DNA of 5,155 nucleotides, from IMG/VR virus record IMGVR_UViG_2778261499_000005. One strand, written 5' to 3'. Both the position numbers and the translations under genes were made by a program. This DNA is from a virus. Lineage: Duplodnaviria > Heunggongvirae > Uroviricota > Caudoviricetes. This document shows positions 217-5,155 of this stretch, one piece after another. The notes under the pieces are model-generated. The model was not told the origin of the DNA. It saw only the letters and a program-made list of their open reading frames with translations, and made no database searches. Positions within the stretch are counted from its first letter, which is position 1. Every line of letters starts with the position of its first letter.

Positions 217-327
217 AAGCTTAAATATACATAATATTTAGCTTCATTTTTTTAGGTATTTTAAAGATTTAGAGGAATGTGAATGGCTACTTATGCTTCT
301 TATTTACCAGAATAACAAATTATCACT

Positions 328-1626: not shown

Positions 1627-1871
1627 GAATAGTGTTCTATCTGATAAATATAAAATATTTAAGGTCAGGTCTGCTTATCGCTCAAAGCGGACTAGAAGGT
1701 TAGCTTGCGTCGGACTTGGCGTATTTAAAGAAGTGCTGGTGGTGACTGGTTGTTGTGTTCCATTTCTACAGAACAAAATCACAGAAACTATACCCAATAG
1801 TTATATTGAATCAATGATGAGACAGCCTCATATTTATCAGGACTGGTGTACGTCCAATACAGGAGGTTGTC

Positions 1872-1961
1872 GTGCTGGTTCTCAAATGTGCGCTAGCTAT
1901 TGCGGCTGTAATGGCAATTTATTGTCTTGCTGTTGTTCTTACGGATCGCCTTTCTGATTGA
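1872..1961 (+). CDS. Candidate small membrane peptide, 29 aa (MLVLKCALAIAAVMAIYCLAVVLTDRLSD)
   Basis: AGGAGG (1861-1866) lies 5 nt upstream of GTG 1872. The product is a single hydrophobic helix with a charged tail (TDRLSD); stop TGA at 1959-1961. Too short to appear in the ORF track; no homolog recalled. Confidence 0.3.
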   Translation: MLVLKCALAIAAVMAIYCLAVVLTDRLSD

Positions 1962-1968
1962 TTTTATA

Positions 1969-1997
1969 TTGGCGAGGTGACGTGAGTTAAGTAGAAT
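1969..1997 (+). promoter_or_regulatory. Candidate hok mRNA promoter: TTGGCG (1969-1974), 17-bp spacer, TAGAAT (1992-1997)
   Basis: Good -10 (TAGAAT) with a TTGnnn -35 at 17-bp spacing. The predicted start near 2004 coincides with the 5' element that is complementary to the region after hok. Confidence 0.4.
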
Positions 1998-2003
1998 TGC
2001 TGC

Positions 2004-2051
2004 GGGTGCTTGAGGCTATCTGCCTCAGGCATGAACACCAAAGGCAGATAG
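2004..2051 (+). promoter_or_regulatory. hok mRNA 5' leader refolding elements (tac/ucb/dcb-like)
   Basis: 2009-2015 (cttgagg) pairs with 2023-2029 (cctcagg) as a 7-bp stem with a 7-nt loop. 2016-2024 (ctatctgcc) is also the exact reverse complement of 2043-2051 (ggcagatag). 2004-2015 is complementary to 2380-2392. These are mutually exclusive pairings, as in the hok mRNA switch. Confidence 0.45.
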
Positions 2052-2059
2052 AGAAAAGC

Positions 2060-2124
2060 CCCAGATAACATTACGCGTCCGGCAAGACGCTTAACATTAA
2101 TCTGAGGCCAATTTCATGCTTTGC
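2060..2124 (-). ncRNA. sok: Candidate Sok-like antisense RNA, antitoxin of the hok locus (extent approximate)
   Basis: In hok/sok loci the antisense RNA covers the mok translation-initiation region. A minus-strand promoter-like pair (TTGCCT at plus 2154-2159, 17-bp spacer, TAACCT at plus 2131-2136) would start transcription near 2124, running across the mok SD (2103-2107) and ATG (2116). No clean minus-strand terminator was found, so the 3' end is a guess. Confidence 0.35.
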
Positions 2125-2328
2125 ACATGTAGGTTAGCCTCTTACGCGCCGGAAGGCAAGGAGAAGCAGGCTATGAAGCAGCAAAAGGCGATGTTAGTCG
2201 CACTGATTGTCATCTGTTTAACCGTCATAGTGACGGCACTGGTAACGAGGAAAGACCTCTGCGAGGTGCGAATCCGAACCGGTCAGACGGAGGTCGCTGT
2301 CTTCACAGCTTACGAACCTGAGGAGTAA
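2116..2328 (+). CDS. mok: mok-like frame (70 codons), in-frame N-terminal extension of hok that couples hok translation
   Basis: ATG 2116 preceded by tGAGG (2103-2107) at 8 nt; it shares frame and stop with hok, as I recall for chromosomal mok/hok pairs. The 70-codon length matches known mok frames. Confidence 0.55.
   Translation: MLCTCRLASYAPEGKEKQAMKQQKAMLVALIVICLTVIVTALVTRKDLCEVRIRTGQTEVAVFTAYEPEE
2173..2328 (+). CDS. hok: Hok/Gef-family type I toxin, 51 aa (HokD/RelF-like)
   Basis: Translation MKQQKAMLVALIVICLTVIVTALVTRKDLCEVRIRTGQTEVAVFTAYEPEE matches the Hok family and is near-identical to E. coli HokD/RelF as I remember it. AAGGAG (2158-2163) lies 9 nt upstream of ATG; stop TAA at 2326-2328. 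Confidence 0.93.
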   Translation: MKQQKAMLVALIVICLTVIVTALVTRKDLCEVRIRTGQTEVAVFTAYEPEE

Positions 2329-2337
2329 GAGTGACTA

Positions 2338-2392
2338 GGCGAGGGAGAAATCCCTCGCCGCCTCTGATGTGTCAGGCATCCTCAACGCACCC
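2338..2392 (+). promoter_or_regulatory. hok mRNA 3' structures: perfect 9-bp hairpin with GAAA loop (2338-2359) and fbi-like element (2380-2392)
   Basis: ggcgaggga-gaaa-tccctcgcc is a perfect hairpin with no following U-tract. cctcaacgcaccc (2380-2392) pairs with gggtgcttgagg (2004-2015) over 12 bp with one bulged C. Confidence 0.45.
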
Positions 2393-2796
2393 ACACTTAA
2401 CCTGATTCGGCGAGTTTATTTTATCTGTGAATATTTTTATAAAAATAATGCCCATACACAGCAAAAAACAAAAAGTATTACAGATAAAAAAGGAGCGTAA
2501 TGTGCAGATTTGTTGTTTTCCATATTTACTCACCTTAATATGATTAATCCTGATAGGATTGTTATTTCAGCGGTTTTCAAATGAGATATTATGGTGATCT
2601 GACAAATTTGCATAACATTAAAATTTAATTTGTTTAACCGCTTTTAATAATAAGCGTTGTTTGTATCCCAGCAATCTGTTGTTTGGTTTTTATTCCATTA
2701 AGGTGGGGGCTTTACACTGGAACCAGTTTATTTATACTTTATACGTCAGCCTGAACAACTGGCATCTGCTGCACTGCGCCATCGAGAGATTGAGAA

Positions 2797-3396
2797 ATGG
2801 CGCATATACAACTGGTCAAACAAACTTCTTCTGGTTTACTTCTCCCGGCGACGCCGGAGAGTTGCGATTTTCTGCATCAAATCAAAATAGGTGAGTGGAT
2901 ACACGCAGACTTTAAGCGTGTGCGTAACTACGCATTCCACAAGCGTTTTTTCAAACTCCTGCAACTGGGATTCGATTACTGGACTCCGGTCGGTGGGGCG
3001 ATCACGCCTCGCGAACGAGAACTGCTGTCTGGTTTCGTTGATTACCTGTGCGAATCAGTTGGTCGGGAACACACGCCAGCCCTGAGTGATGCCGCAGAGC
3101 AATACCTTAACACCGTTGCGACTCGTAGAACCCGGGATACGGCGTTGCTAAAGTCGTTTGAGGCTTTCCGCGAGTGGGTAACCATTCAGGCCGGATTTTA
3201 CACCGAGCATATTTATCCGGACGGTAGCCGTGGGCGTCGGGCAAAATCCATCGCTTTTGCGAATATGGACGAAGTCGAGTTTCAGCAGGTTTATAAATCT
3301 GTACTGAATGTGTTGTGGAACTGGATTCTGTTCCGTAAATTCTCCTCTCAGGAGGAAGTTGAAAATGTGGCCGCACAACTACTGGAGTTTGCGTAA
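2797..3396 (+). CDS. Prophage protein of unknown function, 199 aa (DUF1367-like, from memory)
   Basis: 600-nt ORF at about 50% GC; its stop overlaps the next gene's ATG (TAATG at 3394-3398). A roughly 200-aa protein directly upstream of a DUF1364 gene and Q matches the arrangement I recall in lambdoid prophages. Confidence 0.8.
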   Translation: MAHIQLVKQTSSGLLLPATPESCDFLHQIKIGEWIHADFKRVRNYAFHKRFFKLLQLGFDYWTPVGGAITPRERELLSGFVDYLCESVGREHTPALSDAAEQYLNTVATRRTRDTALLKSFEAFREWVTIQAGFYTEHIYPDGSRGRRAKSIAFANMDEVEFQQVYKSVLNVLWNWILFRKFSSQEEVENVAAQLLEFA

Positions 3397-3686
3397 TGGT
3401 GAATTTACGTAAAGCGGCTAAAGGCCAGATGTGCCAGATCAGAATCCCTGGCTACTGCAATCACAATCCCGAAACCTCTGTGCTGGCGCATTACAGGCTG
3501 GCGGGGACGTGCGGAACAGCGACAAAACCACACGATATGCAGGCGGCGATAGCCTGTAGCTCATGCCACGATCTAATCGACGGGCGGGTAAAAACCAGCG
3601 ATTACACCAAAGAAGAATTGCGCCTGATGCATGCTGAAGGGGTTTTTCGCACACAAGAAATCTGGAGAAAGAAAGGTCATTTATGA
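3396..3686 (+). CDS. DUF1364 family prophage protein, 96 aa (YbcO-like)
   Basis: Translation MVNLRKAAKGQMCQIRIPGYCNHNPETSVLAH... resembles E. coli DLP12 YbcO (96 aa) in length, Cys pattern and the CQxRIPG motif. GGAG (3384-3387) lies 8 nt upstream; ATGA overlap with the Q start at 3683-3686. Confidence 0.85.
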   Translation: MVNLRKAAKGQMCQIRIPGYCNHNPETSVLAHYRLAGTCGTATKPHDMQAAIACSSCHDLIDGRVKTSDYTKEELRLMHAEGVFRTQEIWRKKGHL

Positions 3687-4225
3687 TTTACCCAACGAAT
3701 ACAGGAAAAAGCGGAGAACACCTTCGCCTCACCACGCTGGAAAGTGTCTGGATTCAGGGAAAACTACGTATGTGGGGGCGCTGGTCGTATATTGGCGGTG
3801 GCAGGTCAGGGAATATGTTCAATCAGTTGTTGGCATCCAAAAAACTGACGAAAACAGCCATTAATGAAGCCCTGCGCAGAATGAAAAAAGCGGGAATAGA
3901 GAAAGCTGAGCTGGAAGCGTTTTTGCGAGAGATGATCAACGGCAAGCAAAAGAGCTGGCTGGCGCATTGTACTGATGCAGAGGCGTTATGTATTGATCGA
4001 GTCATAAGTGAGGTGCTGGCAGAGCATCCAGGATTGATTTGCATTCTCCGGCAACGCTATGAAGGGCGGGGGATGACTAAGCGCAAAATGGCTGAATTGC
4101 TAAATGATGCACACCCAGAGTGGTGTTTTAGCACATGCGAAAAACGGATTGCTAATTGGTTAGCTGTTGCTGAGTATGCCCTATATATTCCCATGCGTGA
4201 ATCATTTGCTGAGAAAATGGCTTGA
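3683..4225 (+). CDS. Antitermination protein Q-like late-gene regulator, 180 aa
   Basis: Contains LRMWGRW, resembling the L-x-x-WG-x-W motif I recall in Q-family antiterminators such as QuuD. It is the last gene of the DUF1367-DUF1364 operon and is followed within about 80 nt by an intrinsic terminator. AAAGG (3672-3676) lies 6 nt upstream of ATG. Confidence 0.65.
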   Translation: MIYPTNTGKSGEHLRLTTLESVWIQGKLRMWGRWSYIGGGRSGNMFNQLLASKKLTKTAINEALRRMKKAGIEKAELEAFLREMINGKQKSWLAHCTDAEALCIDRVISEVLAEHPGLICILRQRYEGRGMTKRKMAELLNDAHPEWCFSTCEKRIANWLAVAEYALYIPMRESFAEKMA

Positions 4226-4303
4226 TTTCTTACGTATAAACTGCTTCAATTTTGCTATGCTTCGCAAAGCTGTATCGCGAGGCGGATTGCAGACATGGAC
4301 ATC
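4226..4303 (+). promoter_or_regulatory. Candidate Q-dependent late promoter and Q-utilisation region (position only; hexamers unresolved)
   Basis: Sits between the Q stop and the terminator, where lambdoid phages carry the late promoter and qut site. TATAAA at 4235-4240 is a possible -10, but no well-spaced -35 was found. Confidence 0.25.
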
Positions 4304-4305
4304 GT

Positions 4306-4332
4306 AAAAAAACCGCTTAATGCGGTTTTTTT
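4306..4332 (+). terminator. Symmetric, potentially bidirectional intrinsic terminator (tR-prime-like)
   Basis: aaaaaaa-ccgc-ttaat-gcgg-ttttttt: a 4-bp GC stem (4313-4316 / 4322-4325) with a 5-nt loop, flanked by a 7-A run (4306-4312) and a 7-T run (4326-4332) that extend the stem. Confidence 0.6.
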
Positions 4333-4369
4333 ACGTCAGGAAAGCAGGGGAGAATGCTGCTAGTTGGGC

Positions 4370-4408
4370 AACTGGTCTTTCTGCTCCAAATTATAACAGA
4401 GACCAGTT
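4370..4408. repeat. Perfect 9-bp inverted repeat, aactggtct (4370-4378) / agaccagtt (4400-4408), with a 21-nt spacer
   Basis: Exact reverse complements read from the sequence. An 8-T run follows at 4425-4432. Function unknown: RNA hairpin or protein-binding site. Confidence 0.5.
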
Positions 4409-4652
4409 ATAGTTTCGGTGCTGTGTTTTTTTTACAATATTGTGATAACACATTGCTGGCGGGAGTTTTGATATTTCTTGGCAGGGGCTGATGATGCGTT
4501 ATCCTGATGTCGTCAACTCATATAAAATGAGATGAGAGATCATTGCAGGGTGGTTTGTAATTCGCTGTTTAGCGGGACAATATGTTGTCTGATACAAGAC
4601 ACCCGACGCCTCAGATTACTATAATAAAGACGAAGCATCCTTTGTATTGACC

Positions 4653-4678
4653 AACCGCCTGTTTAGGCGGTTCTTTTT
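4653..4678 (+). terminator. Rho-independent terminator
   Basis: aaccgcc (4653-4659), loop tgttta, ggcggtt (4666-4672), then cTTTTT (4673-4678). The GC-rich 5-bp core is extended by two A-T pairs; only the plus strand has the trailing U-tract. Confidence 0.5.
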
Positions 4679-5029
4679 GGGCTGGTTTATTGTATGCCAA
4701 ATGATTATTAAAAAGGTTGTGTTAATAACAAAATCCGAAATAATATGCCTGCATATTTTTATCTTGCTTATATTCTGCATATTGTGCATAGCAGGCTCAT
4801 CCCTGCAATCAAAACTGTATGATGAGTATTTTTTGTTTTCCTTTTTTCCAGTCATCTGATGATGACCTGCTTCTTTTTAATCCGGATCGACATCAGTTTT
4901 TTAAGATAATTCCTGCGAGTTATATGCATAAATACCACAAACTCCGCATTTTATGTGGTTGGGAGTTGCCGGGCGCGCAGTGAGTTTGCTAAGAAAACTC
5001 CTGCATGGTGAATCCCCCTGTGCGGTGGG

Positions 5030-5068
5030 GTGATACCATTAACCTTTTCTGTCGCCGACAGGTATCAC
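5030..5068. repeat. Perfect 8-bp inverted repeat, gtgatacc (5030-5037) / ggtatcac (5061-5068), with a 23-nt spacer; candidate operator or RNA structure upstream of the gene starting at 5102
   Basis: Exact reverse complements read from the sequence; located 34 nt upstream of the SD-led ATG at 5102. Confidence 0.45.
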
Positions 5069-5101
5069 GAACATTTTGTTCACCGGGAGGCACCCGGCAC
5101 C

Positions 5102-5155
5102 ATGCACTTCAATAGATTCTCTCCACATTATGGATATTCTTTCAGAATATCCCAC
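5102..5155 (+). CDS. Possible 5' end of a gene running off the window (MHFNRFSPHYGYSFRISH...)
   Basis: GGGAGG (5085-5090) lies 11 nt upstream of ATG 5102; the frame stays open to the window edge. Only 18 codons are visible, so this is weak. Confidence 0.25.
   Translation, partial: MHFNRFSPHYGYSFRISH

Follow-up and report, generated by a model that had tools for sequence, protein, structure and literature searches.

The analysed window, 5,155 nt of a Caudoviricetes record (IMGVR_UViG_2778261499_000005), contains on its plus strand a 51-codon hok toxin gene nested in frame within a 70-codon mok frame. The Hok product of 51 residues matches the Pfam family PF01848 (HOK_GEF) with E = 1.6e-23 (82.4 bits against a cutoff of 22), and RefSeq labels the identical gene hokD. 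An in-frame mok and a consensus hok SD had both been claimed in the initial annotation and are both present, with GAGG upstream of the mok ATG as its SD. Around these reading frames we placed the promoters and RNA elements listed in Table 1. The locus lies between the cargo slot and the DUF1367 gene of a Rac-like E. coli prophage, and its neighbours (the DUF977/ydaW side, DUF1367, YbcO and DUF1133, followed in related strains by essD, rrrD and trkG) are those of Rac. PADLOC returned no match for Mok/Hok or for the upstream proteins. A Cys-rich 47-codon ORF (1814-1957) was dropped as a small-gene candidate, since its start codon varies among relatives, one of which also carries a frameshift.

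Table 1 Coordinates of the hok/sok-type locus and its predicted elements in the window.
Feature	Position	Strand	Basis or details
hok mRNA promoter	1969-1997	+	-35 TTGGCG 1969-1974, 17-nt spacer, -10 TAGAAT 1992-1997
Full-length hok mRNA core, tac to fbi	2004-2392	+	Homology with distant relatives begins and ends here
tac (translational activator element), 5' arm of the end-to-end helix	2004-2015	+	GGGUGCUUGAGG, also given as gggtgcttgagg; fold, pair probabilities
Metastable 5' hairpin of the nascent transcript	2006-2016 with 2022-2032	+	Partial-transcript fold, covariation
Stable hairpin beside tac, in closed and open folds	2016-2025 with 2042-2051	+	Folds, alignment
Sok antisense RNA (predicted)	2054-2124	-	~15 nt single-stranded 5' tail (2124-2110), long hairpin, U-run
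ucb / anti-SD	2056-2066	+	2056-2062 with tac (open); 2058-2066 with mok SD region 2100-2108 (closed)
mok SD and dcb	2104-2141	+	GAGG 2104-2107, GCCUC 2137-2141; open form: Sok-target hairpin, loop 2119-2125 contains UUUG
mok frame, 70 codons	2116-2328	+	ATG 2116, in frame with hok, common stop 2326-2328; ORF list
Sok promoter (putative, by eye)	2131-2159	-	-35 TTGCCT 2159-2154, 17-nt spacer, -10 TAACCT 2136-2131
hok toxin gene, 51 codons	2173-2328	+	SD AAGGAG 2158-2163; PF01848 HOK_GEF
Small covarying stem	2306-2308 with 2318-2320	+	Loop presents UACG of the Tyr47 codon
3' hairpin, 9 bp, GAAA (GNRA) loop	2338-2359	+	Fold, covariation
3' segment pairing with mok start and Sok-target region 2116-2127 in full-length fold	2369-2379	+	Full-length MFE
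fbi (fold-back inhibitory element), 3' arm of the end-to-end helix	2380-2392	+	cctcaacgcaccc; fold, covariation
Degenerate remnant of intrinsic terminator	2399-2420	+	Relatives AACCCGCTTCGGCGGGTTTTT; window AACCTGATTCGGCGAGTTTATTTT

A consensus promoter scan scored the hok promoter at 9 of 12 matches. In most of 73 distinct upstream contexts from homologous loci, a -10-like hexamer (TAGAAT, TATAAT, TAAAAT, TACAAT or TATATT, weaker in a few) stands exactly 6 nt upstream of a conserved GGG, and the hok mRNA of the window probably starts at about G2004, with the -10 six nt upstream. Downstream of this presumed start, the whole of the Rfam model RF01794 (hok-sense strand, model positions 1-157) matches 2004-2178 with 116.1 bits against a gathering score of 59; the locus of phage 933W, taken as positive control, scored 113.5 bits, and a K-12-type locus, taken as negative control, gave no match. 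Within the coding region, RNAalifold recovers the small stem at the Tyr47 codon with compensatory exchanges (pair 308/322 is C-G in 29 and U-A in 16 sequences, pair 309/321 A-U in 23 and G-C in 18), and A-to-I editing has been reported at this Tyr codon in hokD (PMC5630033).

The two ends of the predicted mRNA are complementary. The claimed pairing of 2004-2015 with 2380-2392, 12 bp with one bulge, can be confirmed directly from the sequence and runs from G2004-C2392 to C2009-G2387 and, past a bulged C2386, from U2010-A2385 to G2015-C2380. The MFE structure of 2004-2400 includes this tac/fbi helix and is closed by it, at -162.2 kcal/mol compared with -119.6 +/- 6.0 kcal/mol for shuffled sequences (z = -7.07; 0 of 100 shuffles as good), the 12 pairs having probabilities of 0.97-1.0 and the isolated duplex an energy of -19.8 kcal/mol. 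Over a 5-kb window, 12 bp could arise by chance, or as a by-product of G+C-rich ends without regulatory meaning, and six of the 12 pairs never vary and hence give no covariation signal. However, the stability of the whole fold and the pair probabilities speak against such a reading, as do the homologs. Among 105 distinct homologous loci, each locus's own tac/fbi duplex has a mean energy of -19.9 kcal/mol (range -16.6 to -26.0), whereas tac paired with shuffled fbi reaches -9.4 +/- 2.5 kcal/mol. Across the 47 homologous loci of our covariation set (Escherichia, Kluyvera, Photorhabdus, Erwinia and others), tac and fbi are paired in 92.4% of cells and covary through compensatory U-A to C-G and G-C to A-U changes, and the homology of diverged loci ends exactly at tac and fbi, with blastn edges at ~1992-2004 and 2392. 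Chance complementarity, whose probability we put close to nil, is already refuted by the covariation and the shuffle controls.

In the same alignment, columns 1-3 and 5-8 of tac are invariant, and column 4 covaries with fbi (U-A 35, C-G 10). Pairing over the whole structure amounts to 87.2%, compared with about 40% when partners are slid, and RNAalifold independently finds the tac/fbi, ucb/SD and 3' hairpin pairings. The Photorhabdus fbi, which is without the bulged C, is shifted one column out of register by MAFFT, which lowers the apparent pairing of tac/fbi pairs 7-12; per-sequence duplex energies and the tac/fbi pair list were used in place of these columns. The helix formed by the neighbouring 3' segment (2369-2379) shows double changes in eight of nine pairs, but only 67% of its cells are paired in a stretch where the alignment is uncertain.

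Besides the end-to-end helix, the 5' region can adopt mutually competing structures. A local hairpin (2009-2015 with 2023-2029) had been annotated as the activating alternative of the 5' element. It is real, with 7 bp including one G-U, and folding extends it to the 11-bp metastable hairpin of Table 1; however, it is the co-transcriptional metastable structure, and the activating pairing is that of tac with ucb (2004-2011 with 2056-2062). The 32-nt fold of the metastable hairpin has an energy of -19.6 kcal/mol (z = -4.8), and in the alignment 97.5% of its cells are paired, four pairs show double changes and column 4/29 alternates between U-A (35) and C-G (11). Position 4 of tac thus changes together with both of its alternative partners, a clean and reproducible example of coupled covariation. 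The further pairing of 2016-2024 with 2043-2051 proposed initially is likewise real (9 bp), and folding lengthens it by one pair to the stable hairpin beside tac, in which 94% of cells are paired and three pairs carry compensatory changes.

Downstream of this hairpin, ucb takes part in two mutually exclusive pairings, with tac or with the mok SD region. In nascent-chain folds, the metastable hairpin forms first and the tac/ucb stem afterwards; tac/ucb appears in the 67-nt and 109-nt folds, and ucb/SD in the full-length MFE. The ucb/SD pairing is backed by compensatory changes (e.g., A-U 39, G-C 8). The tac/ucb stem is 99.7% paired and never varies, so that covariation speaks neither for nor against it. 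In constrained folds of the full-length RNA, the free structure has an energy of -160.5 kcal/mol, compared with -147.1 kcal/mol when tac/ucb is enforced and -143.9 kcal/mol when fbi is kept single-stranded. For RNA truncated at 2364 or 2366, the tac/ucb fold is the MFE (-136.0 and -137.2 kcal/mol, respectively). Upon truncation at 2362, the MFE keeps the closed 5' domain, with the open tac/ucb form within 1 kcal/mol; the switch is thus near-isoenergetic, and thermodynamics alone is not decisive. The modelled energies support the switch but do not prove it. When tac/ucb is enforced in the truncated RNA, the hairpin between the mok SD and dcb, the predicted Sok target (-12.4 kcal/mol, z = -2.4), reappears; this hairpin corresponds to helix three in the Rfam consensus.

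On the minus strand, the coordinates of the predicted Sok were carried over from the misc_RNA annotated as sokW in phage 933W, with no indels in the transfer, and the resulting RNA folds with -29 kcal/mol (z = -4.75). The consensus promoter scan did not report a Sok promoter with the -10 TAACCT, and the putative promoter was thus assigned by visual inspection and by its match to 933W, which has the same two hexamers; the -35 region is invariant in the alignment. The most variable 12 nt among close relatives (2119-2130) comprise the Sok 5' end and the target loop, as expected for a copy-specific recognition site.

At the 3' end, the hairpin with the GNRA loop is paired in 97.2% of cells, with four pairs showing compensatory changes. 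By analogy with the R1 model (PMC9841398), this hairpin would stop 3' exonucleolytic trimming and so define the 3' end of the truncated, active mRNA. Beyond fbi, most hokD-type relatives carry an intrinsic terminator, about 10 nt past ~2395. In the window, two of its stem positions are disrupted and the remnant forms no stable hairpin; this exact mutated variant occurs in 63 of 5426 genomes. A consensus scan of 1900-2500 found no terminators, and a scan for a replacement downstream of fbi gave only two weak candidates, a yield that does not exceed the chance level. With no alternative terminator detected before the next same-strand genes, hok transcripts of this lineage might read through into the nin-region genes (DUF1367, YbcO, Q-like), the locus serving partly as promoter or leader or producing 3'-extended hok RNAs with altered activation kinetics. 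We regard this as quite improbable: the argument is purely structural, an extended RNA would be shortened by 3' exonucleases to the core that tac/fbi closes, and 933W-type loci are also without this terminator and still work as toxin-antitoxin pairs. Slimmer still is the prospect that, in the Rac-prophage lineage represented by these 63 genomes, transcripts running toward the DUF1367, YbcO and Q-like genes couple the toxin-antitoxin promoter to prophage late-gene control or shift the timing of hok mRNA activation.

The initial annotation of an apparently complete hok/sok-type locus is supported by the full-length RF01794 match, the HOK_GEF domain and the fact that every RNA element in the published model of R1 (PMC9841398) finds its place in the window, backed by covariation (with tac/ucb itself invariant). 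On the strength of sequence elements, predicted energies, covariation and family membership, we conclude that the Rac-like prophage very probably carries, at 1969-2420, a complete hok/sok-family type I toxin-antitoxin locus of the hokD/hokW subtype, which likely works as in the model for plasmid R1. From homologs we infer where the transcripts end, how they are processed at the 3' end, that Sok is expressed and that the locus is toxic. In such a mechanism, hok mRNA would be transcribed from about G2004, its nascent 5' end being held in the metastable hairpin (2006-2032), so that mok and hok would not be translated co-transcriptionally. In the finished RNA, tac would pair with fbi, the adjoining 3' segment would mask the Sok target along with the mok start, the mok SD would be masked by ucb, and the full-length RNA would thereby be stable, untranslatable and blind to Sok. 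Slow 3' trimming to the GNRA hairpin would strip fbi, allowing tac to pair with ucb (2056-2062), which would free the mok SD and let the target hairpin form. As long as Sok is present (2124 to 2054), its 5' tail would bind this hairpin and the duplex would be destroyed; once the unstable Sok is gone, mok would be translated, hok translation would be coupled to it and the 51-residue membrane toxin would be made. Candidate roles are prophage retention, an aid to lysis on induction as for hokW-sokW, and phage exclusion.

A locus with intact sequence could nevertheless be a functionally silent relic, recently decayed or carried as a prophage passenger, that neither kills nor is regulated in its present host. 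The degenerate downstream terminator points this way, as does a premature stop in the neighbouring cargo gene, which indicates that the prophage region is decaying, and in several strains the prophage is only a remnant. Yet the damage spares every element of the hok unit proper: its ORFs, both sets of promoter hexamers, the 3' hairpin and the tac, ucb, dcb and fbi elements are intact, and they are identical or compensated relative to the functional hokW-sokW. Many strains, moreover, keep the same copy at 99.8% identity; APEC O2-211, CP53 and ECCHD184 are among the carriers. We therefore consider a silent relic unlikely, and a complete toxin-antitoxin locus remains our preferred reading. For other chromosomal members, work cited in 10.1101/2025.08.07.668861 is described there as reporting that hokA (E. 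coli C), hokB (K-12) and hokC (ECOR24) do not mediate post-segregational killing.

At least 80% of the locus is held by 3928 of 5426 complete E. coli genomes. The autonomous architecture highlighted initially is indeed kept in this copy, but it is nothing unusual, being the common state in E. coli and described in the literature. This type of locus is already annotated, common and experimentally characterised, and the finding is correct but ordinary. Genome pipelines label the full hok/sok unit only as the 51-codon 'hokD', so that mok, Sok and the elements of the RNA switch go without annotation, and beyond correct annotation the finding has little importance. The coupled covariation at tac and the Sok recognition site as the fastest-changing part of the locus are in line with what has been published on the hok family and add nothing to it.

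Among known systems, hokW-sokW (with mokW) of the Stx2 phages 933W and Sp5 (VT2-Sakai) shares 92% nucleotide identity over 1984-2402 of the window, and its elements, from the promoter through tac, the predicted Sok, mok, hok and the 3' hairpin to fbi, follow one another in the same order and at the same spacing. In 933W, mokW and hokW are annotated in the same arrangement and the Rfam match falls at equivalent coordinates; in Sp5, hokW-sokW has been established experimentally as a type I toxin-antitoxin pair with sokW as the antitoxin (PMC8621323). These loci differ from the window in residing in another prophage and position, in several positions of the Sok 5' tail and target loop (2110-2125) and in an unrelated sequence after fbi. 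A further match, at 91.5% identity and with annotated mok and hok, is 'Escherichia phage Rac' (MN652886). The K-12 hokD (relF), in contrast, is the third member of relBEF, an operon of the Qin prophage. Its toxin is one residue off the window Hok (98% identity), and the hok SD, coding region, 3' hairpin, fbi and ~25 nt beyond are ~94% identical, but relE sequence stands in place of 2004-2158 (own promoter, tac, metastable hairpin, ucb, mok start and Sok), and the K-12 type keeps an intact terminator that the window copy has lost. The initially drawn contrast with K-12 hokD thus holds: relB-relE-hokD aligns only from 2159 onward, whereas in the window the leader (2004-2158) is complete and relBE is absent, a departure from the relBEF-type arrangement. 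Integration of relBE into an ancestral 70-codon hokD, truncating it, has been published (PMC6379469); within 2.5 kb upstream of relB in the K-12-type locus, we found no remaining 5' fragment of the hok leader. The reference system, hok/sok (parB) of plasmid R1, encodes a Hok with about 44% identity to HokW-type toxins (PMC8621323) and resides on a plasmid rather than in a prophage, and processing and killing would extend to the window copy by analogy. In the published R1 model (PMC9841398), it has the same features that we predict for the window: closure by tac/fbi, a metastable 5' hairpin, sequestration of the mok SD by ucb, activation through tac/ucb, an SD/dcb target hairpin, a protective 3' hairpin and a cis-antisense Sok over the mok start.

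The initial annotation had described a hok/sok-type locus with end-to-end complementarity across the hok mRNA; the observation is confirmed, and its interpretation is supported with three corrections. Its coordinates and sequences for the 5′ element tac (2004–2015, GGGUGCUUGAGG) and the 3′ element fbi (2380–2392, CCUCAACGCACCC) are exact on direct reading of the sequence, and the two pair over 12 bp, leaving C2386 as a bulge, in a duplex worth −19.8 kcal/mol on its own. When 2004–2400 is folded, this helix closes the minimum-energy structure, at −162.2 kcal/mol compared with −119.6 ± 6.0 for 100 dinucleotide shuffles (z = −7.07), none of which did as well, with an ensemble probability of 0.97–1.0 for the twelve tac/fbi pairs. 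The two local pairings noticed earlier are also present: 2009–2015 with 2023–2029 lengthens on folding to an 11-bp hairpin (2006–2016 with 2022–2032; −19.6 kcal/mol, z = −4.8), and 2016–2024 with 2043–2051 folds as 2016–2025 with 2042–2051.

Homologous loci retain these pairings. Using the Hok peptide as query, we retrieved 80 viral contigs plus 59 loci from one-genome-per-species contigs, the latter with representatives in Escherichia, Shigella, Kluyvera, Citrobacter, Pseudocitrobacter, Photorhabdus, Pantoea, Erwinia and other genera. Nearly all carry GGGYRC 141–170 nt 5′ of the hok AUG and GYRCCC ending 57–69 nt past the hok stop. In diverged loci, blastn similarity runs from ~1992–2004 to 2392, so that tac and fbi mark where the unit ends. 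When 47 distinct full-length units are aligned, the full-length structure of the window is 87.2% paired, compared with ~40% when partners are slid by 1–3 columns, and 46 of its pairs show double changes. The tac/fbi helix is 92.4% paired, despite bulge-less Photorhabdus sequences lying one column out of register, with exchanges at position 4 (U-A in 35 loci, C-G in 10) and position 12 (G-C 26, A-U 7, G-U 4). The metastable hairpin is 97.5% paired; tac position 4 covaries with its partner there as well (U-A 35, C-G 11), and position 12 is G-C in 16, G-U in 16 and A-U in 15. The seven pairs between tac and ucb (~2056–2066) are invariant, and the sole variable nucleotide in tac positions 1–8 is the one bulged in that stem. 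Without being given the window's structure, RNAalifold arrives at tac/fbi, the hairpin beside it, ucb/SD, the helix between dcb (2137–2141) and the stop region, and the 3′ hairpin. Across 105 distinct loci, each locus's own tac/fbi duplex averages −19.9 kcal/mol, compared with −9.4 ± 2.5 with shuffled fbi. Separately, a 3-bp stem at 2306–2308/2318–2320 (+) covaries in 47 loci, and its 9-nt loop displays the UACG of the Tyr47 codon (2311–2313).

The model for hok of plasmid R1 holds three conformations (PMC9841398), all of which can be placed on this locus by modeling. In the nascent RNA, the metastable hairpin would occupy 2006–2032. In the full-length RNA, tac would pair with fbi, ucb (2058–2066) would mask the mok SD region (2100–2108), 2369–2379 would mask the mok start and Sok target (2116–2127), and dcb with its neighbours would be bound to sequence surrounding the hok stop codon. 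In the truncated RNA, tac (2004–2011) would pair with ucb (2056–2062), and the SD (2104–2108) with dcb (2137–2141) in a hairpin whose predicted 7-nt loop (2119–2125, CUUUGCA) is complementary to the Sok 5′ end. The tac/ucb and ucb/SD pairings are mutually exclusive, because ucb 2056–2062 overlaps the anti-SD nucleotides. The local hairpin noticed in the initial annotation is real, but it corresponds to the metastable structure rather than the activating one, which is tac/ucb. For the full-length RNA, the closed fold reaches −160.5 compared with −147.1 kcal/mol when tac/ucb is enforced, a preference of 13.4 kcal/mol. When the 3′ end is cut to 2364 or 2366, just past a 9-bp GAAA-loop hairpin (2338–2359), the minimum shifts to the tac/ucb fold (−136.0 and −137.2), and at 2362 the two folds differ by <1 kcal/mol. 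These modeled energies are consistent with the order of the switch, but they are not proof of the R1 model.

Rfam model RF01794 ('sok') matches 2004–2178 over its entire length, with 116.1 bits compared with a gathering score of 59. The match is in hok-sense orientation and extends from tac as far as the start codon of hok. Its consensus structure is the open fold, with the tac/ucb stem, the SD/dcb hairpin and, between them, a hairpin that is the complement of the Sok stem; what the model captures is therefore the leader of the mRNA, not the antisense RNA. For a family named 'sok antitoxin', this could lead automated annotation to the wrong strand. Pfam HOK_GEF falls within the 70-codon ORF (E = 1.6e-23). 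In most of 73 homologous upstream contexts, a −10-like hexamer lies exactly 6 nt 5′ of the conserved GGG, as it does here, which supports a start at about G2004. The predicted Sok RNA would begin with ~15 unpaired nt over the mok AUG and continue into a long hairpin and then a U-run (−29 kcal/mol, z = −4.75), and both of its putative promoter hexamers are the same in 933W, an Stx2 phage carrying hokW-sokW.

Features of the hok/sok-type locus in window positions
Feature	Position	Strand	Description
mok	2116–2328	+	70-codon ORF, start behind GAGG, in frame with hok
hok	2173 (start)	+	behind AAGGAG, same frame as mok
hok promoter	ending 6 nt 5′ of G2004	+	TTGGCG-17-TAGAAT, sigma-70-like
Sok RNA (predicted)	2124–2054	−	transferred without indels from the 933W sokW feature
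Sok promoter (putative)	TTGCCT 2159–2154, 17 nt, TAACCT 2136–2131	−	by eye

Most hokD-type loci carry an intrinsic terminator, AACCCGCTTCGGCGGGTTTTT, from ~10 nt past fbi. At this site (2399–2420, +) the window reads AACCTGATTCGGCGAGTTTATTTT, with two stem positions mutated and no stable hairpin; of 5426 complete E. coli genomes, 63 carry this identical variant. No convincing replacement was found 3′ of fbi, which leaves it uncertain where the primary transcript ends; of the hok mRNA span proposed initially, the start near 2004 is supported by the −10 spacing, but the end near 2395 is tentative. The terminator is not essential to the family, because 933W-type loci also lack it. Among relatives of at least 85% identity, no other 12-nt stretch of the hok unit varies as much as 2119–2130, where the Sok 5′ end and the predicted target-hairpin loop lie; this pattern suggests that antisense recognition is specific to each copy in cells that contain several. 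The transcript ends, processing, Sok expression and toxicity that this copy would have are those we infer from homologs.

The neighbourhood holds further features. A 447-codon gene of an uncharacterised family (283–1626, +), with an HExxH motif ('HEWIH'), sits in a variable cargo slot of the Rac-like prophage adjoining hok, where strain SW07091 carries an AbiH-family gene and a hypothetical gene instead. It has 32 homologs, the named ones from Sodalis, Serratia, Enterobacter, Aeromonas and Rheinheimera, and no Pfam or PADLOC match. Codon 11 is TAA in the window (313–315) and Ser in homologs, which means either an interrupted gene or a restart at TTG 328. The block 1668–2003, which in many strains accompanies the hok unit, contains a Cys-rich 47-codon ORF (1814–1957, +) directly 5′ of the hok promoter; it is probably not a gene, its start codon not being kept in relatives and one relative being frameshifted. 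After the Q-like gene, a hairpin is followed by a U-run (ACCGCTTAATGCGGTTTTTTT, ~4311–4332), and weak, sub-threshold isrK-like matches lie on both strands at 4259–4387 (21.6 and 20.1 bits; gathering score 50). The gammaproteobacterial sRNA STnc100 (RF02076) matches 4973–5155 (+) with 81.5 bits (gathering score 47) and is cut by the window end.

Loci of this kind are already known, and this one lies at a site that has been annotated before. The window version of 1668–5155 is common to many strains (99.8% identity, Rac position), and neighbours in related strains include DUF977/ydaW, DUF1367, YbcO and a DUF1133 Q-like protein, then essD, rrrD and trkG. A 461-nt query matches 4725 of 5426 complete E. 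coli genomes (median 2 copies per genome, maximum 10), with at least 80% of it in 3928 genomes and in 74 phage records. RefSeq labels the toxin gene hokD; mokW, hokW and sokW are annotated in 933W and VT2-Sakai, and mok and hok in a Rac phage record. The enrichment of hok in prophages has already been surveyed (10.1101/2025.08.07.668861). In Sp5, hokW-sokW is a demonstrated type I toxin-antitoxin pair that promotes phage release after induction, sokW antitoxin activity partially requiring RNase III and Hfq (PMC8621323). The autonomous architecture noticed initially is present, but it is the norm rather than exceptional. The accompanying statement that K-12 hokD lacks its own regulatory elements is correct: the K-12-type locus (ydfV, relB, relE, hokD, rem) has no sequence that aligns to the window before 2159, and Rfam finds no match there and a match in the 933W locus. 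The common part comprises the hok SD, coding region, 3′ hairpin, fbi and then the terminator region, whereas 5′ of the equivalent of 2159 the K-12-type locus has relE-flanking sequence. Shortening of an ancestral 70-codon hokD by relBE integration is already reported (PMC6379469).
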